Below, piece after piece: positions 13,736-41,775 of a DNA stretch of 64,000 bases. The stretch is from NCBI RefSeq assembly GCF_035605935.1, contig NZ_DATNGK010000266.1, positions 24,688 through 88,687 on the forward strand, given 5' to 3'. The stretch's first letter is position 1; each line of letters begins with the position of its first letter. This stretch comes from Actinocrinis sp. (GTDB lineage: Bacteria; Actinomycetota; Actinomycetes; Streptomycetales; Catenulisporaceae). Made by a program: the position numbers and the translations under genes. The notes under the pieces are model-generated. The model did no database searches. It was not told the origin of the DNA and was given only the letters and a program-made list of their open reading frames with translations.

Positions 13736-13969
13736 CCACATCCCGTCCGCGCTGTGCATTCATCTTCCCAGTTAGGGGTACTGGAAGCCGCCGAGACCCG
13801 ATTAAGGTCCCGGCGCGCGCACCGTACTATCTAGTAAGGTGAGGCTTACCTACTGGAGCTGAAGCTGGGAGGCTCGATGGACGGACGGCGGCGCGCGGTG
13901 CCCGGTTTCGAGCGCGCGGACGTCCAAGACGCCCCGGCCCTGCCCTTCCGGCCACGCCACCGAGCCGAG

Positions 13970-14494
13970 ATGGCATCTGACACGCAGGAGGTCGCAGCCG
14001 GCGAGTTTCGCGAGGTGCTGGGCAACTTCGCCACCGGGGTCACCGTCATCACCACGCTGGACGGTCCGCGGCCCATCGGCTTTACCTGCCAGGCGTTCAA
14101 TTCGCTCTCGCTCGACCCGCCGATGGTCTCCTTCTCCGTCGCGCGTGCCTCGAGCAGCCGCCCGCGGATACTCGCCGCCGGCCGGTTCTGTGTGAACGTG
14201 CTGGCCTTCGACCAGCACTCGCTGTGCGCCCGGTTCGCCACCCGCGAGGTCGACCGCTTCCTCGGCGTCGACTGGTGGCGCTCGCCCGGCGGCAACCCGG
14301 TGCTTGACGGTTCGCTGGCCTGGATCGACTGCACGGTCGAGGCGGAGTACCCGGCCGGGGATCACACGATCGTGGTCGGTAACGTGCGCTCGCTCGCGGT
14401 GCAGCGAGAGGCGGCCCCGCTGGTCTATCACCGCGGCGCGTTCGCCAATTGCTTCCCGGTCGCGGGTAACGGCGCGCTGCCGCGAGTCTGCTGA
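13970..14494 (+). CDS. Flavin reductase (NAD(P)H:FMN oxidoreductase, split-barrel family)
   Basis: The sequence reads 'FREVLGNFATGVTVITT......GFTCQAFNSLSLDPPMVSFSV...S...I......F.VNVL....' and '..GDHTIVVGNV'. The start is the ATG at 13970; the GTG/ATG at 13877 is an alternative. Confidence 0.85.
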   Translation: MASDTQEVAAGEFREVLGNFATGVTVITTLDGPRPIGFTCQAFNSLSLDPPMVSFSVARASSSRPRILAAGRFCVNVLAFDQHSLCARFATREVDRFLGVDWWRSPGGNPVLDGSLAWIDCTVEAEYPAGDHTIVVGNVRSLAVQREAAPLVYHRGAFANCFPVAGNGALPRVC

Positions 14495-33540: not shown

Positions 33541-33897
33541 GTGGGAAACTTTTTCCAGGTCGACCTCGACGTGCTCCAGCGCATGACCAAGACGCTGGGC
33601 GACGCCGGGGATCAGATGGAGTCCGCGCTCAAAGCGATGACTTCGTCGCAAGCGGGGCAGGTCGGCACCGAGGCGCTGAACAAGGCCGCCGACGCATTCC
33701 AGCACACCTGGCAGTACGGCCTCGGCCAGCTGCAGCAGGTGATCAAGGAGACGTCCGAGGGCGTCAAGAAGGCGCACGACGCATATAAGCAGTGCGACGA
33801 CGGCATCGAGCAGGCCATGTCGAAGATCAACAGCCAGGCCATGGGGGCCATCGACCAGGCGGTGCAGGCCGCGGCGGTGCACGGAGGGGCCAAGTGA
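33541..33897 (+). CDS. Small helical WXG100-superfamily-like protein (118 aa), first gene of a 4-gene operon
   Basis: The GTG start follows GGGGAGG. The opening 'FQVDLDVLQRMTKTLGDAG' is typical of Esx/Esp-type helical hairpins. The protein has two predicted long helices and no strict WXG ('HTWQYGLG'). Confidence 0.6.
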   Translation: MGNFFQVDLDVLQRMTKTLGDAGDQMESALKAMTSSQAGQVGTEALNKAADAFQHTWQYGLGQLQQVIKETSEGVKKAHDAYKQCDDGIEQAMSKINSQAMGAIDQAVQAAAVHGGAK

Positions 33898-35267
33898 GCG
33901 TGGTCGCGGAAGACGCAACGACGTACCCGAACCTCGGCTTCAACCCGGTACCAGGCGTGCCGGCGGATGTGGAGTCGATGAGCGCCGGCCTGGGGCAGGC
34001 GGTGTCCTCGATGCAGGAGTCCGGCTCGCTGCTCGACCAGATGCGCGACGCGGGCAGCGGGGTCTGGCAGGGCGAGGCCGGCGACAAGTTCCGTGAGCAC
34101 CTGGACACCAAGCTGGTCACCGACCTGCAGCACGCGCACGAGTCGCTCAACAACGCGGTCGGGGTGCTCAAGAGCTGGCACGGGGACCTACTCGGCTTCA
34201 AGGACGTGGCGGCCAAGCTGGACCAGGAGGCGGCCGAGGCCAAGCAGGCGGCGGCGCGCGCCGACGAGGCGGTCAAGCAGGCCGAGGCCAATCCGGACCT
34301 CAAGCTGGTCGGCCAGTTCTTCAACACCCAGGAGGCGCTCCAGGCCGCCCAGTCGCGAATAGACCAGGCGCAGGGCGCACTGCGGGACGCGGGTTCGGCC
34401 GCGCAGAACGCGCACGCCGAACTGGACTCGATCATGAAGCGGGCGCAGGAGCTGGCCGCGCAGCACGAGGCGGCGGCCCGCAAGTACGCGCAGGAACTGG
34501 AGCAGGCCACCAAGGGCCTTGCCCCGCACAAGCCGGGCTTCTTCAGCAGCCTGTGGAACGACTTCACCAGCGGCCTGAGCGCGGTGGGCAACTGGGTGAA
34601 GAACCACATCGACGTGATTCACTCGGTGCTGTCCACGATCTCCGCGGTAGCCGGCCTGATCGCGCTGTGCACCCCGCCGCCGATCGATGCGATCGCGGGC
34701 GCGGTGGCCATCGGCGCCGGAATCGGCGCGCTGGCCTGCGACCTGGCCAACCCGAAGGTGCGCGACGCCGTCGGCGGCCTGCTGACCGGCCACTTCACCA
34801 TGGACAACCTGAAGAACGCGTCCGCGATGGGCCTGGACGCGCTCAGCCTGATACCGGGCGGGAAGCTCGCGGGCGCGGCGCTGAAGGACGGCGAGGTGGT
34901 CCTCAAGGGCGCCGAAGGGATACCGACCCTGGCCGCGAAGCTCCCCGGGCTCGCCCAACTCGGCGGCGACGCGACGCGGGCGTTCGGCGACGCGGCGCAG
35001 GCCGGGGTCACCACGTTGGAGGACGGCACCAAGGCGTTCGACGCGGCCGGCAACGTGCTGCGTCAGGGCTCGAATATCGCGCACGGCCTGAGCCTGCCGG
35101 TCAAGCTCGGCGTCGGCGCGGCGAACAAGATCTTCAAGCTCGCCGACACCGCCACCGTGGACGGGGCCAAGTCGCTCGCCCAGCTCTCGCAGAACCTTGA
35201 GCTCGGCTGGAAAGCCAAGTCCGTGGTGAGCAGCCTGTACGGCGACGTGAAGCAGGCGGTGTCGTGA
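33894..35267 (+). CDS. T7SS-style effector-like protein: WXG100-like N-terminal domain + coiled coil + hydrophobic helical hairpin + Gly/Ala-rich C-terminal domain
   Basis: GTG at 33894 overlaps the upstream stop (GTGA) and follows GGAGGGG. Features are 'YPNLGFNPVPGVPADV', 'GVWQGEAGDKF' (W at nt 34065) and an Ala/Gln/Glu-rich coiled coil of ~130 aa. Two hydrophobic segments follow, 'VLSTISAVAGLIALC' and 'AIAGAVAIGAGIGALAC' (small-xxx-small zipper). Confidence 0.65.
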   Translation: MSVVAEDATTYPNLGFNPVPGVPADVESMSAGLGQAVSSMQESGSLLDQMRDAGSGVWQGEAGDKFREHLDTKLVTDLQHAHESLNNAVGVLKSWHGDLLGFKDVAAKLDQEAAEAKQAAARADEAVKQAEANPDLKLVGQFFNTQEALQAAQSRIDQAQGALRDAGSAAQNAHAELDSIMKRAQELAAQHEAAARKYAQELEQATKGLAPHKPGFFSSLWNDFTSGLSAVGNWVKNHIDVIHSVLSTISAVAGLIALCTPPPIDAIAGAVAIGAGIGALACDLANPKVRDAVGGLLTGHFTMDNLKNASAMGLDALSLIPGGKLAGAALKDGEVVLKGAEGIPTLAAKLPGLAQLGGDATRAFGDAAQAGVTTLEDGTKAFDAAGNVLRQGSNIAHGLSLPVKLGVGAANKIFKLADTATVDGAKSLAQLSQNLELGWKAKSVVSSLYGDVKQAVS

Positions 35268-35983
35268 GCACGCTCGGCAATATCCTCGACTCCGCTCCCG
35301 ACACGGAGGATCCGGACGCGCTCAACTGCTGGGTAGAGCTGCCGCCCGGCTACTTCCCGCTGCCGCTCGACGACATCGACAACGCCCTGGCCACCGCGGA
35401 GGCGAACCTGCGCGAGCTGGCTCCGGAGGAACAGCGGCCGCTGCTCGCCGCGGTGGTGGGCACGCTGATGGTGCTGCTGGAGCAGTTGCAGGAGCGCAAC
35501 GCCGCGTACTGCGGCATCGGCTGGCACACCGCCGAGGACGACACGGTCGTCCCCTCCAGCCTGGTGGTCTCGATCCAGCCATTCCCGCACAAGCGCAACC
35601 CGCGCCTGGTGATCAAGGACCTGGTCGAGGCGCGCGCGGAGGCCGGCGAACACGGCCAGGTCGACGTGGTCGACCTCAGCCGCGGCCCGGCGCTGTTCTT
35701 CGAGAGCGTGCTGACCCTGCCGCGCCCGCAGCTGCCCGGCCAGCCGCCGAACGAGCAGCCGGACGCCGAGGTCTACCAGCTCCAGGCCCTGGTGCCGAGC
35801 GCGGACGGCCGCAAGCTCGCCGCGATCGACTTCACCACGCCCGACATCCCACATGGACCGAGATTCCGGGCCATGATGGTGCTCATGGCCGACTCGGTGT
35901 CCTTCACCGCTCCTGCGGGGAGCGAGGAGGGCGGGGAGACGGCCAGGTCGATCAGCCAGATCCTTGGAGGACTCGCCCCGTGA
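35264..35983 (+). CDS. Hypothetical soluble protein (239 aa), third gene of the operon
   Basis: GTG at 35264 overlaps the upstream stop (GTGA). It has no TM or signal sequence and no motif I recognise. Confidence 0.6.
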   Translation: MSTLGNILDSAPDTEDPDALNCWVELPPGYFPLPLDDIDNALATAEANLRELAPEEQRPLLAAVVGTLMVLLEQLQERNAAYCGIGWHTAEDDTVVPSSLVVSIQPFPHKRNPRLVIKDLVEARAEAGEHGQVDVVDLSRGPALFFESVLTLPRPQLPGQPPNEQPDAEVYQLQALVPSADGRKLAAIDFTTPDIPHGPRFRAMMVLMADSVSFTAPAGSEEGGETARSISQILGGLAP

Positions 35984-36651
35984 CCGGCTCGCTCCCGTCG
36001 TGGTCGCCGCTCAACGACCCGCAGTTGTCCGCGCAGATTCAGGCCCGGCTCGCCAACGGGCAGGAGAAGACGCGGGTCGAGGCGCAACGCGATTTGTACT
36101 TCCTTGAGCGGTTCGAATGGCGCGAGTACCCCGCCAAGTGCGGACGCTGGCATTTGGGCGAGGCCGGGTCGTTCACGCTGACCGGCGGCAGCAACCTTTC
36201 GGGGCCGTGGACCAAGATGGACTGGAGCCCGGACTACCGGTGGGTGCTGCTGCTCGATCCGGCCAGCCGGCAGCCGATCGCCGCCCATATCGTCAACGAC
36301 TGGTGGGTCGAGGATCCGAAGGCGCGTCAGGTCGTGCCGGTAGCCAACGGGGTGACGAGCTTCTGGTTCGCGGGCAACCCCCTGCTCGGCGGAATGTTCA
36401 CCCCGGCCGGCAACGGCCATCGGGCAGTGTTCGGATACCGCAGCGGGCACTCGGAGGTCGCCAACTTCGTCAACTGGACGAGCGGTCCCGCCCGATTCGA
36501 GCAGCTCGCCGCTCAAGCCGCTTCGTGGACCTACACGGATAAGGTGGCGAGCGAATTCGGTCCCTGGCTCGCCGATCAGCCGCAGCAGCCGCCGCGGCCG
36601 CGCCGCTTCAGCCGCCTGGCCTGGCAGGCCACTACCCCGACGCAGCCATAG
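35980..36651 (+). CDS. Hypothetical Trp-rich soluble protein (223 aa), fourth gene of the operon
   Basis: GTG at 35980 overlaps the upstream stop (GTGA). It is Trp-rich (13 W), probably beta-rich, with a Pro/Gln-rich tail and no recognised motif. Confidence 0.6.
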   Translation: MTGSLPSWSPLNDPQLSAQIQARLANGQEKTRVEAQRDLYFLERFEWREYPAKCGRWHLGEAGSFTLTGGSNLSGPWTKMDWSPDYRWVLLLDPASRQPIAAHIVNDWWVEDPKARQVVPVANGVTSFWFAGNPLLGGMFTPAGNGHRAVFGYRSGHSEVANFVNWTSGPARFEQLAAQAASWTYTDKVASEFGPWLADQPQQPPRPRRFSRLAWQATTPTQP

Positions 36652-36664
36652 CGCCGAGCGGGCG

Positions 36665-36940
36665 CTACAGGCGGGCCGCACCCTCGCGCGCGGCTTTATC
36701 CAAGCGCAGGGCGAGGGCCGGGCAATCGGTCACCGCCCTGCGTGCGTCTGCGAGCAGCTGTGCGGGGATGGCGCGGTCCGCGATGATCGGATAACCCCAT
36801 TCGTCCAGCGCTATGTGTTCGCCGAGCAGTTCGGCGCATAGGCCGTGGCCGCTGCATCTCGTCGGGTCCAGCCGCAATCGAGCGCCCGCGCCCGAAGCAG
36901 TGCCGGAGTCTGTGGCTGCGTTCGTTGCGTGCATCGTCAT
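36665..36940 (-). CDS. Small single-cluster ferredoxin (CxxHxxC...CP type)
   Basis: The sequence 'RLRLDPTRCSGHGLCAELL......DEWGYP........A..AV..CPALALRL' fits this type. Its ATG overlaps the upstream stop (ATGA at 36937-36940). Confidence 0.75.
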   Translation of the reverse strand: MTMHATNAATDSGTASGAGARLRLDPTRCSGHGLCAELLGEHIALDEWGYPIIADRAIPAQLLADARRAVTDCPALALRLDKAAREGAARL

Positions 36941-38268
36941 CGCCAGTCCTCGTCGGTGCGCGGCGGGTTCATCGGCGAGGGCAGGGGAAGGAACGCGCGG
37001 TCGTTCGACGCGACGCACATTCCCTGCCCGTGCCGCCATAGCTCCTCTTCGAAGACTGTCAGGGCGCTGCGCACCAGCCGGATACTTCCGTCCGGGTGAT
37101 GGCAGGCGCCGCGCCGCTCGATCTGTCCCGCCCAGCGGGACACATCGGCGCGCTCTCGGGCGTGAACGCCCGGCCCCGCGAGTACTCGCAACGCGTGCGC
37201 GATGCGTGGCAGACCATTGAGGCACGGCCCGCATTGCCCGGCTGACTCGGCGGCGAGGTACGAAACGACCCGCGCGGTCTCCCGCAGTCCGCAGCAGTCA
37301 GCGGGCAACGCCGCCAGCACTCCGGCGCCGAGCGAGGCGCCTTCTGCTCGCAATGCCGCGTTGGTGAGCGGCAGTGCGGTAGCGCGATCCGCGGGCAGCC
37401 AGGTGCCGTGGTAGCCGCCGATCAGCACTGCGCGCGGCGCCGATCCGCCTCCGGCGGCGGCCGTGGCGGCATCGAGCCCGAGCAACTCACCCAGCGGGGC
37501 GCCGGGCGCCGTCTCGATCACCCTCGGGGTCGCGTTCGGCCGGTGCACCGTCGCCAACAGCGTGCCGGGTTCGTCCGAAGTCCCGGCCGCACGAAACCAG
37601 CCGGCTCCGTAGTCTGCGATCAGCGCGAGATGGGCAAGCGTCTCAACGTTCTGCACCAGAGTCGCAGCGCCGCCGATGCCGCGTTCGCTGACGCGCAGCG
37701 GCGCGTATCGAGGCAGCGCAAGGCCGCCCTCGATACGGTGCACAACCGCGGTTTCCTGACCGGCGATGAAACGCGGCGCAGCTTCGACCACCGTGACCGG
37801 CACGCGGTCGACACCAGCGCGCACTCGCTCCGCGACGGCTTCCCGTACCCGTCTCAGCACCCGTTGATCGGGGTGTATGTATGCGTATGCCTGCCGTGCG
37901 CCGACGGCTTCGGCGGCCAGCTGCAGCCCGTCGAGCACGAGATGCGGGTCCGAGTAAAGCAGGGTTCTGTCTTTGCACGAGGCGGGCTCGCCTTCCGCGC
38001 CGTTCGCCACGACCACTGCGCCGCCAGCTGCCCGCAATACCGCCTCAAGCTTGCGATAGGTAGGGAATCCGGCTCCGCCCCGACCGGTCAAGCCCGCCGC
38101 ACGGACCTCGTCTATCAACACCTGGGGCGCGCCCCGATACGAGGCGGGACCGTACAGCGCCCGGTGCTGTTCGAGGCTGAGCGACCGGTCGGGGTAAGGC
38201 AGAAGCCGGCGGAAATCGGAGCCTTGGTACACCGACGTATCCGAGGGCTGAGTCGCCATGACGTTCAC
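36937..38268 (-). CDS. NuoF-like NAD(P)H-binding flavoprotein with SLBB and 4Fe-4S region
   Basis: It has 'GLTGRGGAGFPTYRKLEAV' (the NuoF 51-kDa Gly-rich motif) and the cluster region 'SAGQCGPCLNGLPRIA...RGACHHPDG'. GTG at 38268 overlaps the upstream stop. Confidence 0.8.
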   Translation of the reverse strand: MNVMATQPSDTSVYQGSDFRRLLPYPDRSLSLEQHRALYGPASYRGAPQVLIDEVRAAGLTGRGGAGFPTYRKLEAVLRAAGGAVVVANGAEGEPASCKDRTLLYSDPHLVLDGLQLAAEAVGARQAYAYIHPDQRVLRRVREAVAERVRAGVDRVPVTVVEAAPRFIAGQETAVVHRIEGGLALPRYAPLRVSERGIGGAATLVQNVETLAHLALIADYGAGWFRAAGTSDEPGTLLATVHRPNATPRVIETAPGAPLGELLGLDAATAAAGGGSAPRAVLIGGYHGTWLPADRATALPLTNAALRAEGASLGAGVLAALPADCCGLRETARVVSYLAAESAGQCGPCLNGLPRIAHALRVLAGPGVHARERADVSRWAGQIERRGACHHPDGSIRLVRSALTVFEEELWRHGQGMCVASNDRAFLPLPSPMNPPRTDEDWR

Positions 38269-38885
38269 TGCTGCCTACCCCCGCTGAGTTGTTCGGTCAG
38301 GACGGAAACGCGCGCGGCGCGCGGCACATCGTGCGGCCTTCGACCCTCGCTGACCCGCCAGGCCAGCGCCGCGAGGACGGCGAGGACGCATCCGATGCCG
38401 AGGCCGAGCAGCCAGCCGCTCTGCATGTCGGTGCTGCTGCCGAGGCTGTGTGCGACGGATACCGGCCAGGAGAGGTAAGCCAGCCAGTGCACCCACCGCC
38501 AGGTGCGATGCCCAATCCGGGCGCGAAGCAGGCTCGTGATGATCAGAGCGAGGATGAGGTCGAAGGCGACCGTACCGAGCCCGAGCCACAGTGGCTCGTA
38601 AGAGGCGGCGAACGGGATTATCGCGTCTGTGAGGCGGATGTTCACGTAGGAGTCGGCGACCGCGGTGACGATATGGATCGCCAGGAAGGCGACCGAAAGT
38701 AACGAGATGCTGCGGTGCAGGCCGACCACGGCGAACCTCGGCAGGCCGGGCAGCCTGCCATGTTTCTGGACCGCGACGCCGAGCACGACGACACCGGTGA
38801 GCATGATCAACGACACGACGCCGGTGGCTCGGCTGGTGTACCAGAGCGCGGTACTCGACGTGATGCCGCTCGCCGCGGCGCTCAT
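38265..38885 (-). CDS. Ferric-reductase-like transmembrane (heme b, MsrQ/YedZ-like) protein
   Basis: The 206-aa protein has 5-6 TM helices with conserved His residues ('GLHRSISLLSVAFLAIHIV', 'VHWLAYLSWPVSVAHSL'). Its start overlaps the ApbE stop (ATGA). Confidence 0.75.
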   Translation of the reverse strand: MSAAASGITSSTALWYTSRATGVVSLIMLTGVVVLGVAVQKHGRLPGLPRFAVVGLHRSISLLSVAFLAIHIVTAVADSYVNIRLTDAIIPFAASYEPLWLGLGTVAFDLILALIITSLLRARIGHRTWRWVHWLAYLSWPVSVAHSLGSSTDMQSGWLLGLGIGCVLAVLAALAWRVSEGRRPHDVPRAARVSVLTEQLSGGRQQ

Positions 38886-39928
38886 CTTCCGATTCCAGTC
38901 CCAGGCGAGAGCGCCGCGCGCATTCCGCCGCCCGCGAGCGAGCCGACTGACTCAGCCTGCTGATCCGGCGGCCAACCGCCAGTGGTCCGCACCCGCCCGT
39001 CCAAGTCCACCAACCGGGCCGCAATCCCCCGCTGCTCGAAGCGCGCGAGCGCCGCACGCCCCCTGATGATCGCGCCGGTCGCCGCGACGTTCGCGGTGAG
39101 ACAGTCCGGCGCGGTGACCGAGACGGTGCGCCACACGGTCGGCGCCGGCAGTCCGTCGCGCGGGTTGAGGATGTGGTGCAGCACGGCGCCGCCGCGTTCC
39201 CAGCGCCGAGCGGTCGTGCTGGAGGTGGCCAGCGCGCCGCCGCGCAACGCGATCGTCTGCGCCGGGCCGGTCGGCGCGTCATCCGGATGACCGGTCACGT
39301 CCTGGACCCGCACCCGCCATCCGCCGCGCGGCGCCGGTCCCGCGGTGGCGATGTCGCCGCCCAGTGAGACGAGCACGCCGCAGCGCAGCCGTTGCGCGAT
39401 CCGCGTCGCCGCCCGGTCCGCGGCCCACGCCTTCGCGGTCGCACCGAGGTCGAGGCGGGTGCCCGGCGGCATACGCAGGCTGCGCGAGGCTCGCTCGAAG
39501 GTGATCCGCCGCCATCCCGGCACCGGCCGCGCGCTGAGCGTGATCGCGGGGCCGTTCGGCGCGACCAGCGCGAAATCTCGGTCGTATCCGAGGGCTGACA
39601 TTGCCTCGCCGACGGTCGGGTCGATGTCGCCGTCGCTGGCGCGCGCCGCGTCCAGCGCCACGCCGATCGCCTCGGTCAGCAAAGGGGAAAGAGTCACCCA
39701 GCGGCCGTCAGCGGCGTCGAGCGCGGCCAGTTCGGAATCCGCGCGAAAACGGCTGCACGCGCGGTCGAGACCATCGAGGTCTGATTCGAGGAGCGAACGC
39801 GCCGCGGCGAGCCGGCCGGGGTTGGTGACCAGCAGGCTGATTCGGGTGCCGATGGCGGTCCAGTCGCTCGCCCCGACGCGCTCCTCGATCGGCGGGGCGG
39901 GCCGGGTCGCGGTGGTGGCGCTCATCAC
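38882..39928 (-). CDS. apbE: ApbE-family FAD:protein FMN transferase
   Basis: Motifs are 'SRFR.DSEL..LN', 'GDIDPTVG', 'LDLGATAKAWAAD' and 'LVSLGGDIA'. The start is the GTG at 39928 or the ATG at 39925, and both overlap the upstream stop. Confidence 0.85.
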   Translation of the reverse strand: MMSATTATRPAPPIEERVGASDWTAIGTRISLLVTNPGRLAAARSLLESDLDGLDRACSRFRADSELAALDAADGRWVTLSPLLTEAIGVALDAARASDGDIDPTVGEAMSALGYDRDFALVAPNGPAITLSARPVPGWRRITFERASRSLRMPPGTRLDLGATAKAWAADRAATRIAQRLRCGVLVSLGGDIATAGPAPRGGWRVRVQDVTGHPDDAPTGPAQTIALRGGALATSSTTARRWERGGAVLHHILNPRDGLPAPTVWRTVSVTAPDCLTANVAATGAIIRGRAALARFEQRGIAARLVDLDGRVRTTGGWPPDQQAESVGSLAGGGMRAALSPGTGIGR

Positions 39929-40218
39929 GAACCTCCCGAGGTGACTTGGGCGTTCTGGTTCGTGGACTGCGGGGCCTGGCTGGTGCTGCCGCTGTTGGTC
40001 GTGGTGTCGTTACTGGTGCCGCTGTCGCTCGTCGTGCTCTGCGACGTGCTGCCCGATGACGATGATGACGAGGTGGAACTGGACGAACTGTGCGTCGATC
40101 CGGGCAACGCGACGGCGAGGGCGACGGCTCCGGCGACTCCGGAGACGCCCACGACGGAGGTAATGGCGTTCACCCGAGCGCGATCGCGCCGCCTGGTGCG
40201 CTTCGGCTGGTCGAACAT
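39925..40218 (-). CDS. Small membrane-anchored Ser/Thr-rich protein ending in ...QVTSGGS (candidate minimal flavinylation substrate)
   Basis: The 97-aa protein has a basic N-terminus, a TM helix (AITSVVGVSGVAGAVALAVAL), ~55 aa of S/T/N/Q low complexity and a C-terminal TSGGS. It is translationally coupled to apbE. Confidence 0.5.
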   Translation of the reverse strand: MFDQPKRTRRRDRARVNAITSVVGVSGVAGAVALAVALPGSTHSSSSSTSSSSSSGSTSQSTTSDSGTSNDTTTNSGSTSQAPQSTNQNAQVTSGGS

Positions 40219-40359
40219 CGCTGCGTACTCCGTCCGCTAGGTCCGCTGATCACTGCTGTATCGCGGTCCACTATCCGCGGCGCTGATGAGCGGCACGCTG
40301 GGCTGCGGCGAAGGGGAAGATGAGAAAACTCAAGGAAGTTGCTGAGAGCGGACGCCGAG

Positions 40360-40806
40360 CTACTCCGGAGGCAGTCGGCGCAAACGCTTGATCTGCGAGC
40401 GCCGCGTCTTGTCCTCCAGCCGCCGCGCCACCGCCCCCTTCGACGGCTTGGTCGCCCGCCGCGCCCGCGGCGCAGCGGCGATCGCCTCGGCGAGCAGCGC
40501 GGCCAACCGGTCGCGGGCGGCTTGGCGATTGCGCAGCTGAGAGCGGAATTCCGCGGCGGAGATGGCGAGTTGACCGTTCGTCAGGCGGCGCTCCAGCCTG
40601 GCGAGCGCTCGGGCCTTGAGTTCGGGCGGCAGCGCGGACGAACCGGCCAGGTCGAAGATCAGCTCGGCCCTGCTGTCGGTCGTGTTCACGCCTTGGCCGC
40701 CGGGCCCGGACGATCGGGAGAAGCGCCAGTTCAGCTCGTGCGCCGGAATCACCACGGCGGCGGTGACGCGCAGCGGTCCGGAGGCAAGGTCCTCGTCCGA
40801 AGGCAT
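40360..40806 (-). CDS. arfB: Alternative ribosome-rescue factor ArfB (peptidyl-tRNA hydrolase, YaeJ family)
   Basis: The 148-aa protein has the GGQ motif 'SSGPGGQGVNTTDS' and a basic C-terminal tail (KTRRSQIKRLRR). Confidence 0.9.
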   Translation of the reverse strand: MPSDEDLASGPLRVTAAVVIPAHELNWRFSRSSGPGGQGVNTTDSRAELIFDLAGSSALPPELKARALARLERRLTNGQLAISAAEFRSQLRNRQAARDRLAALLAEAIAAAPRARRATKPSKGAVARRLEDKTRRSQIKRLRRLPPE

Positions 40807-41003: not shown

Positions 41004-41588
41004 CTACAGCGACGGCAGGCCCGGAACCGGGAGCGAGCCGACTCCCGGAACACCGGGCAGGCCTGGCAGACCCGCCGCGCCCGGAAGCGAGGGCGCGCTG
41101 GGAGCGCCAGGGAGCGAAGGCAGTGAGGGCAGGCTCGGCACGCCGGGCAGGCTGGGCGCGGCCGGGAGGTTCGGCGCGGAGGGAAGCTGCGGCGCCGCCG
41201 GGAGTTGCGGCGCCGCGGGAAGCGACGGGGCGCCTGGCACCGATGGCGCGCCGGGTGCGGACGGTGCGCCGGGTGCGGACGGTGCGCCGGGTGCGGACGG
41301 CGTGCCGGCCGTGGCGCAATCCAGGCTCTTAATCGCGTCGTTGAGCTTGTTGGCCTGCGCGACCTGCGCCGTCGCGCCGGCCAGATCAGGCGGGGTGGCC
41401 AGCAGGCTCTTCGCCGCCTGGGTCAGCGTCGCGGAGTAGTCCGCGAGCAGGCCCGCGCAGGTGGACGGGGAGACCTGCTTCGGCCCCTGCGCGCCGTTCG
41501 TCGCCGCCTCGGCTGCGGTCGCCCCGCAGAACGCCGTGGTTCCCGCGATGGCGAGGGTCGCGATCCAGCGAGCGTGTCGCTTCTGCAC
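41004..41588 (-). CDS. Secreted protein with a helical N-domain and a Pro/Ala/Gly/Ser/Leu-rich repeat C-terminus
   Basis: GTG at 41588 follows AGAGGA and gives the signal peptide (V)QKRHARWIATLAIAGTTAFCGATAAEA. The C-terminal half reads 'SAPGAPSAPGAPSAPGAPSVPGAPSLPAAPQLPAAPQLPSAPNLP...'. Confidence 0.65.
   Translation of the reverse strand: MQKRHARWIATLAIAGTTAFCGATAAEAATNGAQGPKQVSPSTCAGLLADYSATLTQAAKSLLATPPDLAGATAQVAQANKLNDAIKSLDCATAGTPSAPGAPSAPGAPSAPGAPSVPGAPSLPAAPQLPAAPQLPSAPNLPAAPSLPGVPSLPSLPSLPGAPSAPSLPGAAGLPGLPGVPGVGSLPVPGLPSL
41245..41298. repeat. 18-bp tandem repeat x3 (GG(C/T)GCGCCGGGTGCGGAC) encoding SAPGAP hexapeptides, within a broader degenerate Pro-rich repeat tract
   Basis: Read directly. 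It is in frame within the CDS 41004..41588. Confidence 0.8.
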
Positions 41589-41775
41589 TGTGGTCCTCTT
41601 TCGGGCTGGTACCCCCCTCGGGTTCCGCAAGGCAGGTACCCGCTCCGGCCCGCGCCGCCGACTTCCGCCGTTGACATTCATCCGCTTGCCAGTTAAGTCG
41701 TACAACTCACCCGGACAGCAGCGGTCCCCGGCGTGGAGTTGGGAAGCTGCGCCACGCCGGGGACCGGATGATCCG

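Follow-up and report, generated by a model that had tools for sequence, protein, structure and literature searches.

A string of five overlapping genes, here called g1 to g5, lies on the minus strand of a 64,000-nucleotide (nt) stretch of DNA from Actinocrinis sp. (contig NZ_DATNGK010000266.1 of assembly GCF_035605935.1, positions 24,688 to 88,687), the whole of which is referred to as the window. In gene order, their products are a small protein with a Ser/Thr-rich tail (g1), a flavin mononucleotide (FMN) transferase of the ApbE family (g2), an MsrQ-like membrane protein with a ferric reductase domain (FRD; g3), a NuoF-like flavoprotein (g4), and a ferredoxin (g5). An initial annotation made from the DNA letters had described g1 as an anchored Ser/Thr-rich protein. 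This description holds as far as it goes, but comparative sequence data make g1 quite probably the substrate of ApbE itself, with FMN predicted to sit on the serine that ends its tail. It also appears reasonably likely that the flavin works outside the membrane. On balance, we favour the full mechanism, in which the operon would encode a one-way electron conduit of the MsrQ-like, NuoF-type kind whose flavinylated acceptor is the C-terminal end of g1.

An alignment of the NuoF-like protein was scanned against one genome per GTDB species, and at least 558 stretches with a relative were obtained. The linkage counts given here refer to the best 80 of these at least 558 loci, 73 of which have enough upstream sequence. 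The 80 loci are drawn from Streptomyces, Frankia, Streptosporangiaceae, Trebonia, Dermatophilaceae, Nocardiopsis, and many metagenome-assembled genomes (MAGs) from soil. The MsrQ-like gene adjoins the NuoF-like gene upstream in 76 of the 80 and the ferredoxin gene adjoins it downstream in 79. Of the 73 loci, 45 have apbE directly upstream and 13 have it at another place, while the fetched 7 kb contain no apbE in the other 15. It could be deduced from these counts that the core consists of the MsrQ-like, NuoF-like, and ferredoxin genes, to which apbE is usually attached. A survey of such neighbourhoods had been proposed in the initial annotation, and the combination of NuoF-like, FRD, and ApbE genes does recur in other actinomycetes, as the 80 loci attest.

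The evidence for g1 as a substrate comes mainly from its C-terminus. The tail family shares the terminal consensus [A/S/V]-T-S-G-[G/A]-S, with the stop codon directly after the last residue. Counted back from the stop in 56 orthologues, position -6 is A, S, or V in all, -5 is T in 53, -4 is S in 55, -3 is G in all 56, -2 is G in 35 or A in 21, and -1 is S in 55; position -7 is mostly Q, D, or H. The minimal ApbE motif is D-x-x-[S/T]-G-A-[S/T], which receives FMN on its last residue and serves best as a tag at the N or C terminus (PMC12052999). All 16 aligned Streptomyces tails end in DSTSGAS, which is a full match to this heptapeptide, and the ending found in the window, QVTSGGS, contains the [S/T]-G-x-[S/T] core and differs from the canonical motif by D to Q and A to G. 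Within the five operon proteins, the g1 terminus is the sole match to [ST]G[AG][ST]. An open reading frame (ORF) that ends in [ASV]TSG[GA]S and a stop lies directly before apbE, usually with a 4-nt overlap, or directly before the MsrQ-like gene in 63 of the 73 loci; of further tail ORFs in these loci, three lie a few kb upstream and three are variants (TSAAS, TSGS).

This conserved ending could be thought to be an artefact, kept because the overlapping downstream gene needs it for ribosome binding or as its start context, or arising from low complexity, with no functional peptide behind it. The window codons TCG GGA GGT do hold GGGAGG 6-8 nt ahead of the apbE start, the tail is of low complexity, and an antisense ORF at 39941-40240 (+) is open as well. 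However, GGAG or GAGG is present in the terminal codons of only 14 of 59 tails, and all seven terminal codons show synonymous drift; the glycine at -3 is encoded by GGC in 31 tails, GGA in 14, GGG in 13, and GGT in one, and the serine at -1 by TCG in 32, TCC in 13, TCA in 12, and AGC in one. This synonymous variation indicates selection on the peptide rather than on the DNA, and the codon analysis rules out a Shine-Dalgarno sequence of apbE as the origin of the ending. The motif is also retained in tails with 77-157 nt of non-coding DNA after the stop and in internal copies, and the conservation of the N-terminal and juxtamembrane regions speaks for a real protein on the operon strand. As a chance control, all six-frame ORFs of at least 40 amino acids (aa) from the same loci were inspected: 75 of 13,749 end in [ST]G[AG][ST], of which 61 are cluster-upstream genes, nine are evident second paralogues, and about five are chance matches, a background that rules out a chance or low-complexity origin. 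An artefact is thus highly improbable. The antisense ORF (99 aa, with a GC content at third codon positions of 0.86) lies exactly opposite g1 and would be favoured by a naive gene finder based on that content; it is a shadow of the Ser/Thr codon run. Conservation backs the minus-strand gene, and automated annotation could miscall the g1 locus.

Extra internal copies of the motif occur in 25 of the 59 tails, which fits a modification site better than an end signal. One tail protein, at locus L044 (4785-5177, +), has four tandem GSGAT (SGAT) and two TSGGS (SGGS) copies, amounting to up to six potential flavinylation sites. In split clusters, a second paralogous tail protein is encoded after apbE, between apbE and the MsrQ-like gene, as seen on the + strand at L039 (4098-4514), L046 (4057-4464), L053 (5018-5497), and L025 (4060-4374). 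Several of these second paralogues carry a His-rich patch (e.g., TRHHRHHHHARP) and a Pro/Ala-rich stretch before a terminal ...PPQ[AT]VSGGS, and could be a metal-binding variant of the leash.

The g1 protein begins with a basic stretch (7 K+R in 17 residues), followed by a single hydrophobic helix whose highest 12-aa Kyte-Doolittle mean is 2.37 and by a 60-aa tail that is rich in Ser, Thr, Asn, and Gln, contains neither K nor R, and ends in QVTSGGS and the stop. No Pfam or NCBIfam match was obtained for g1, and the FMN_bind, DUF2271, and DUF3570 families gave no match at E <= 1 in 14 members of the tail family. In an AlphaFold2 model built on a 14-sequence alignment, a single helix spans residues 11-36 and the remainder is coil, with a mean predicted local distance difference test score of 50. 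A cryptic FMN-binding domain inside g1 was rejected in view of the lack of Pfam matches and this helix-plus-coil model. Across the family, the proteins have 90-165 aa and the tails 46-103 residues (median 82), 79-97% of which are S, T, G, N, Q, A, or P, and a juxtamembrane LPG[SA]TH is kept, which is replaced in Streptomyces by ALVGTM[QE]S. The number of K+R has a median of 7 before the helix and of 0 after it, and from this positive-inside charge bias g1 is predicted to be oriented with its N-terminus inside and its tail outside. Export of g1 by the twin-arginine translocation (Tat) pathway was considered and rejected since a consistent Tat motif is lacking; the window protein has RARVNAI without a twin arginine, as do many others likewise, and a twin arginine stands beside the hydrophobic stretch only in some lineages, such as Streptomyces (KRRIAAA).

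A single-sequence search with g1 found only one true homologue because of its low complexity. Profiles reached further: a search of 1.84 billion representatives gave 16 matches, about ten of which are small proteins ending in TSGGS, TSGAS, SSGGS, or VSGGS, and a profile of the N- plus C-terminal regions gave 18 matches among 5.8 billion proteins, which are named only 'hypothetical protein' or 'uncharacterized membrane protein' and none of which has a Pfam domain. Three profile matches were read back in their genomic context: L081 shows synteny with the window, the five genes recur in L083 with genes for a response regulator and a histidine kinase behind them, and L082 lies on a fragmented, uninformative contig.

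The transferase g2 covers 264 of 266 positions of PF02424 (E = 3.9e-51), and its nearest solved structures are ApbE/Ftp entries, including 1VRM, 4XDT, and 6NXI. The motifs HHI[LV]DP, DLGATAK, LGGD, and DPT are at least 95% conserved in 45 ApbE orthologues, and the canonical stretch TADALST reads DANAAST in the g2 family. About 22 non-hydrophobic residues precede the conserved ApbE fold in g2 (orthologue median 16), and the median of the maximum Kyte-Doolittle mean in this stretch is 0.13, as opposed to the value given above for the g1 helix. By inspection and hydropathy, neither a signal peptide nor a lipobox was found in g2 or in 44 orthologues, and g2 is therefore predicted to be cytoplasmic. 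The general premise of the initial annotation that ApbE flavinylates extracytoplasmic proteins is thus not straightforward to apply here. A g1-ApbE fusion by frameshifting, which would put ApbE outside, is not supported, as the junction is without a slippery heptamer. An apparent g1-ApbE fusion of 455 aa at L063 proved to be an alternative open frame in low-complexity MAG sequence, with the TSGGS end in another frame.

That no ApbE orthologue has an export signal could also mean that the leash itself is cytoplasmic, in which case the flavin would stay inside and shuttle electrons from the NuoF-like/ferredoxin module to the inner haem, or dock into a partner, and the external acceptor would be unrelated to g1. 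Cytosolic ApbE proteins with cytosolic substrates are known, such as that for the fumarate reductase of K. pneumoniae (PMC12052999), the flavinylated unstructured C-terminal extension of FMN_red folds back into the flavin site (PMC11334425), and the free flavin that shuttles between Fre and MsrQ in E. coli offers a parallel. Nevertheless, a cytoplasmic tail would violate the positive-inside rule, given the charge medians on the two sides of the helix. Moreover, an uncharged Ser/Thr/Gly spacer of 46-103 residues is typical of surface linkers and would seem needless for a short hop, and the outer loops of the MsrQ-like protein are highly conserved. We consider a cytoplasmic leash to be fairly unlikely.

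The other three proteins supply the parts of a conduit across the membrane. The membrane protein g3 matches Ferric_reduct PF01794 (E = 6e-8, 33 bits against a cut-off of 28) and has about five predicted transmembrane (TM) helices. Two histidine pairs, H57-x13-H71 and H133-x12-H146, are invariant in 58 sequences and lie on two predicted TM helices, and these four residues appear to be positioned as ligands of two b haems, one above the other in the membrane, which corresponds to the classical dihaem wire of the FRD family. Among solved structures, the only match is a weak resemblance across H133-H146 to the TM domain of the bacterial NADPH oxidase (NOX) structures 8QQ7 and 8QT6, entries annotated as 'FAD-binding FR-type domain-containing protein'. 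The charge pattern predicts an N-out/C-in orientation, with H57 and H133 near the cytoplasmic face and H71 and H146 near the outer one.

The flavoprotein g4 matches Complex1_51K PF01512 (E = 4.8e-35) and NADH_4Fe-4S PF10589 (E = 5.7e-14) and shares about 30% of its residues with solved NuoF, NDUFV1, and HydB proteins, 7P5H and 2FUG among them. Its conserved loops are the FMN loop GRGGAGFP (GLTGRGGAGFPT), found at residues 63-70 as had been pointed out from the letters, and the nucleotide loop NGAEGEP. The score against the NCBIfam NuoF model TIGR01959 is 195 with a cut-off of 558.65, and that against RnfC is 40 with a cut-off of 246, a likeness limited to the shared 51K fold. The Fe-S region reads ESAGQCGPC...GAC, with Ala in place of the first Cys of the N3 motif (residues 341-349). 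The invariant cysteines are C326, C346, C349, C389, and C418, of which the extra ones, C326 and C418, could complete the cluster. A C-terminal extension, FLPLP...EDW, is conserved in the family, and the cluster ligation and possibly the docking surface would differ from those of NuoF in complex I. Neither nuoE nor nuoG was found among the neighbours of g4, and by its sequence g4 shares the NuoF fold and the FMN/NADH loops only and is not the complex I subunit. The ferredoxin g5 (Fer4_15 PF13459, E = 1e-10) contains the CxxHxxC...CP motif that had been reported for it, as C29-x2-H32-x2-C35 ... C72-P73. Its best solved relatives are 8AMQ (an M. tuberculosis ferredoxin fused to CYP143), 8AMP, and 4ID8, and by analogy it is probably a small single-cluster ferredoxin of the type that binds [3Fe-4S] in related actinobacterial ferredoxins.

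From these features we infer that the tail is flavinylated, which side of the membrane it faces, whether it is modified before or after export, which way the electrons flow, and what accepts them. The NuoF-like g4 would oxidise NAD(P)H on a non-covalent FMN and pass single electrons to its Fe-S cluster, from which the [3Fe-4S]-type ferredoxin g5 would relay them to the inner b haem of g3 (H57/H133) and thence to the outer haem (H71/H146). The electron acceptor would be the FMN that ApbE esterifies to Ser97 at the end of the 60-residue disordered leash, which the N-terminal helix of g1 could hold beside the conduit. With an estimated contour length of about 20-35 nm (~0.36 nm/residue), the leash may allow the flavin to swing back to the outer haem for reduction and out again into the wall. 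Once reduced, the tethered flavin would range through the cell wall and pass its electrons to an external acceptor such as ferric chelates, quinones, O2, or a partner enzyme.

Flavinylation most likely takes place in the cytoplasm on the just-released C-terminus, given an ApbE without an export signal and the availability of flavin adenine dinucleotide (FAD) there. The disordered C-terminal tag leaves the ribosome last, and apbE is translationally coupled to g1. The unfolded, modified tail may then be threaded out. SecYEG can widen its lumen to about 2.4 nm when the substrate bears rigid organic adducts (Bonardi 2011, cited in PMC6028853), and by analogy it is plausible that an unfolded chain carrying FMN (~0.45 kDa) is within the capacity of this channel. 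Flavinylation inside followed by export is speculative, and it would explain both why the substrate is foldless and why there is no need for an FAD exporter.

The same parts could in principle work in another way, with ferredoxin or NAD(P)+ receiving electrons from the quinone pool or an external source, or with the system generating extracellular superoxide or H2O2 in the manner of NOX enzymes instead of reducing metals or quinones. Solvent-exposed free reduced flavin reacts readily with O2, and the MsrQ-like fold is common to NADPH oxidases. The survey that defined this cluster type allows a reversed direction in principle (Méheust et al. 2021, PMC8238504). However, the reduction of NAD(P)+ would be uphill and no energy coupling is visible here, and the sequence does not discriminate among acceptors. 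Such a function is quite improbable.

Several points weigh against the favoured conduit with a flavinylated g1 tail outside the membrane. ApbE is predicted to be cytoplasmic and the tail to be outside, no precedent for modification before export was found in the literature, and the N-terminal region of the g1 family is not a consistent twin-arginine signal. ApbE prefers Thr over Ser as the acceptor. The window motif QVTSGGS is non-canonical at two positions; by mutagenesis, D to A has minor effects and A to V leaves ~50% flavinylation (PMC12052999), and no reported effect of an A to G change was found in the parts of the flavinylation literature at hand. The C-terminal Flavin-tag that has been tested, GVDGLSGATLTS, has three residues past the acceptor (PMC9400968), and the available portions of the Flavin-tag literature document no modification of a truly terminal residue. 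Furthermore, apbE is missing within 7 kb from the 15 loci mentioned above, a recognisable tail gene was not seen in a few loci (L064, L069, L079), and the window has neither an acceptor nor a transporter or iron-regulatory site linked to the operon.

The non-canonical motif and the loci without a nearby apbE would also suit a more classical arrangement, in essence the published one, in which the conduit reduces a conventional flavinylated extracytoplasmic protein encoded elsewhere, and g1 is a structural, anchoring, or wall-spacing protein whose motif stays unmodified. On the other hand, an FMN_bind gene was not found in the operon or the inspected neighbours, and an ApbE without a signal peptide would be unable to act on a substrate that is folded and exported. 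In addition, this arrangement would leave the near-invariant terminal TSG[GA]S, its synonymous drift, and the tight coupling to apbE unexplained, and we regard it as unlikely. A broader form of the preferred reading is offered only tentatively. It holds that g1 may stand for a new kind of ApbE substrate that is widespread, a naturally occurring flavin tag on a leash, which has no folded domain, combines an anchor with FMN on a C-terminal Ser, is flavinylated in the cytoplasm and exported unfolded, bears up to six flavins in some species, and acts as a swinging-arm shuttle from the dihaem conduit through the wall.

The features of the operon and its surroundings are collected in Table 1. As the initial annotation had it, the five minus-strand genes stand in this order and belong to these families according to the ORF calls and Pfam, and the 1-4-nt overlaps claimed for their junctions are borne out: each of the four is a 4-nt overlap (GTGA or ATGA), and that between g1 and g2 shrinks to 1 nt if the second in-frame ATG of g2 is taken as the start. 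A Shine-Dalgarno sequence, GGAG, is present at 40231-40228, 9 nt ahead of the g1 ATG. The gap upstream of g1 is likely to contain the operon promoter and leader, although a consensus scan detected no sigma-70-like promoter in it and the promoter/terminator scan was uninformative.

Table 1. Coordinates of the operon genes, of elements within g1, and of neighbouring features in the window.
Feature	Position	Strand	Description
g1	40218-39925	minus	97 aa, tail protein
g1 membrane anchor, residues ~17-39, NAITSVVGVSGVAGAVALAVALP	40102..40170	minus	conserved juxtamembrane LPGSTH comes next
Heptapeptide QVTSGGS, g1 residues 91-97	39928..39948	minus	putative flavinylation site; Ser97 (last residue) is the candidate FMN acceptor
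g2	39928-38882	minus	348 aa, ApbE; start overlaps g1 stop (GTGA)
g3	38885-38265	minus	206 aa, MsrQ-like / ferric-reductase-domain membrane protein
g4	38268-36937	minus	443 aa, NuoF-like flavoprotein
g5	36940-36665	minus	91 aa counted from the ATG overlapping the g4 stop; ferredoxin
Intergenic gap, 141 nt	40219..40359	minus	upstream of g1; only non-overlapping gap in the gene string
RF-1-domain protein	40360-40806	minus	148 aa, ArfB-like peptidyl-tRNA hydrolase; directly upstream, 141 nt away
Predicted secreted protein	41004-41705	minus	C-terminal half consists of short Pro-rich repeats (APSAPG / APSLPG / APQLP...)
Four tightly overlapping genes, convergent with operon	33541-36651	+	118-aa DUF6317 protein, then 457, 239, and 223 aa

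The RF-1-domain gene next to the operon is probably unrelated to it. For the Pro/Ala-rich secreted protein, the sole match was formin FH1, below threshold. The neighbours in the window also include an amino-acid permease and the convergent DUF6317 cluster, in which the 457-, 239-, and 223-aa proteins match no Pfam family. The neighbourhood is syntenic in the related MAG locus L081, as the same four DUF6317-cluster genes follow the operon there. At L083 (3959-6195, +), where they start 18 nt past it, and at about a dozen loci such as L021 (8522-10828), an OmpR-family response regulator and a HAMP histidine kinase, absent from the window, follow the ferredoxin gene on the same strand; this pair suggests a dedicated two-component regulator in many lineages. 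Some clusters are interrupted by an MFS_3 (EntS-like) transporter gene and a mannosylglycerate-hydrolase-like gene, neither of which is in the window, and the regulator pair together with the MFS_3 transporter at most hints at envelope- or iron-related control. The genes upstream of the cluster in Streptomyces read as housekeeping genes (ispG-like, GNAT-like, proS-like). No IdeR-box-like site was found close to the operon; the window contains a single one, a near-perfect iron box of the IdeR type at 13835-13853 (+), TAAGGTGAGGCTTACCTAC, with two consensus mismatches and none expected in 100 shuffles; it precedes by about 25 nt an ORF of 205 aa at 13877-14494 (+) that resembles NAD(P)H-flavin reductases (FREVLGNFATGVTVITT...) and could encode a flavin or ferric reductase under iron control, distinct from the operon.

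If the preferred reading is true, nature already uses the principle of the Flavin-tag in the form of a domain-less, tethered, C-terminally flavinylated peptide, and the tail proteins add a missing class of ApbE substrate. Genomes with orphan apbE genes are taken to imply unidentified substrates (PMC8238504). The outer end would also be identified for an electron-export system that occurs in several hundred actinomycete species or more, Streptomyces and Frankia among them, with candidate roles in iron reduction, quinone or humic reduction, extracellular production of reactive oxygen species, and the supply of electrons to wall or secreted enzymes. It raises the question of the route by which a flavin attached in the cytoplasm arrives outside. 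Such systems would be missed systematically by pipelines in which ApbE must have a signal peptide or the substrate a Pfam domain.

The closest published systems are the 'MsrQ-like' flavinylation-associated clusters, of which Méheust et al. (2021, PMC8238504) reported 1,797, mostly from Actinobacteria and with NAD(P)H as the proposed cytosolic donor; 31 include a NuoF-like PF10589 protein. This NuoF-like subset shares with the present operon a PF01794 dihaem protein encoded next to apbE, the PF10589 module, a mostly actinobacterial distribution, and a proposed outward flow of electrons. The self-contained electron conduit proposed in the initial annotation fits every domain assignment and re-derives this hypothesis: it had already been published on bioinformatic grounds, the architecture is not new, and we found no experimental test of it in the literature. 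Such clusters are defined as having a PF01794 gene no more than five genes away from a gene for ApbE or a flavinylation substrate, and here g3 adjoins g2. The survey retained a cluster only if a signal peptide or lipobox was predicted in ApbE or the substrate (PMC8238504), whereas g2 is without a signal peptide and FMN_bind, DUF2271, and DUF3570 genes are absent from the operon. Presumably this filter accounts for the 31 NuoF-type clusters there against at least 558 species-level matches here. The published clusters are also described as ones that 'typically include', though not as an obligatory part, a gene for an FMN-binding domain; none of the operon proteins has this domain (PF04205), and a domain-less tail protein carries the motif instead. 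The ferredoxin partner is part of the operon here, and the available part of that description makes no mention of one. What is probably new is the tail protein as a class of ApbE substrate, paired with a cytoplasmic ApbE.

Other electron-transfer systems share single elements with the operon. E. coli MsrPQ with Fre and the FRD, NOX, and STEAP proteins likewise use a b-type dihaem FRD protein to move electrons outward, with a flavin between NAD(P)H and the haems. In the operon, by contrast, there is no fused FAD/NAD domain and the donor would be the NuoF-like/ferredoxin pair; g3 has about five TM helices rather than six, and apbE and a flavinylation motif are present. No MsrP-like molybdoenzyme was found in the operon or its immediate neighbours, to which the search was confined. 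The Rnf, Nqr, and Nqr/Rnf-like complexes resemble the operon in combining ApbE-flavinylated subunits with a cytoplasmic NAD(H) or ferredoxin module, but none of their membrane subunits (NqrB/RnfD, NqrC/RnfG, NqrD/E, RnfA/E) is encoded in it. The statement made at the outset that this is not a classical Nqr, Rnf, or MsrPQ system is thus confirmed by the absence of Nqr/Rnf membrane subunits from the operon and of an MsrP gene in or directly beside it. In Listeria monocytogenes, flavin-based extracellular electron transfer by Ndh2, EetA/B, PplA, and FmnB offers a Gram-positive parallel, as its last carrier still bound to the cell is a protein that is tethered to the surface and flavinylated by an ApbE. 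PplA, however, is a lipoprotein with folded FMN-binding domains that is flavinylated outside by the secreted FmnB using exported FAD, whereas here the carrier would be foldless and anchored by a TM helix, the transferase is predicted to be cytoplasmic, and a dihaem membrane step takes the place of quinone and EetAB.

To our knowledge, the known ApbE substrates are all folded, comprising FMN-bind1/2, NqrB/RnfD, DUF2271, DUF3570, Flavodoxin_4, and FMN_red. Huang et al. (mSystems 2024, PMC11334425) list folded substrates only, and we found no description of a domain-less one in the limited library searched, which is not proof of its absence. The nearest precedent is FMN_red (PMC11334425), which also bears the motif with a Ser acceptor on an unstructured C-terminal extension; that extension belongs to a folded flavoprotein and its flavin returns to the protein's own pocket, whereas g1 is without a folded domain. 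The Flavin-tag of Tong, Fraaije et al. (PMC12052999, PMC9400968) shares with the tail proteins the principle that a peptide of 7-12 residues at a terminus suffices for ApbE. That tag is engineered and placed on folded carriers, whereas the tail proteins would present a natural counterpart on a disordered membrane leash, in which Ser accepts the FMN and Gly often stands where the tag has Ala.

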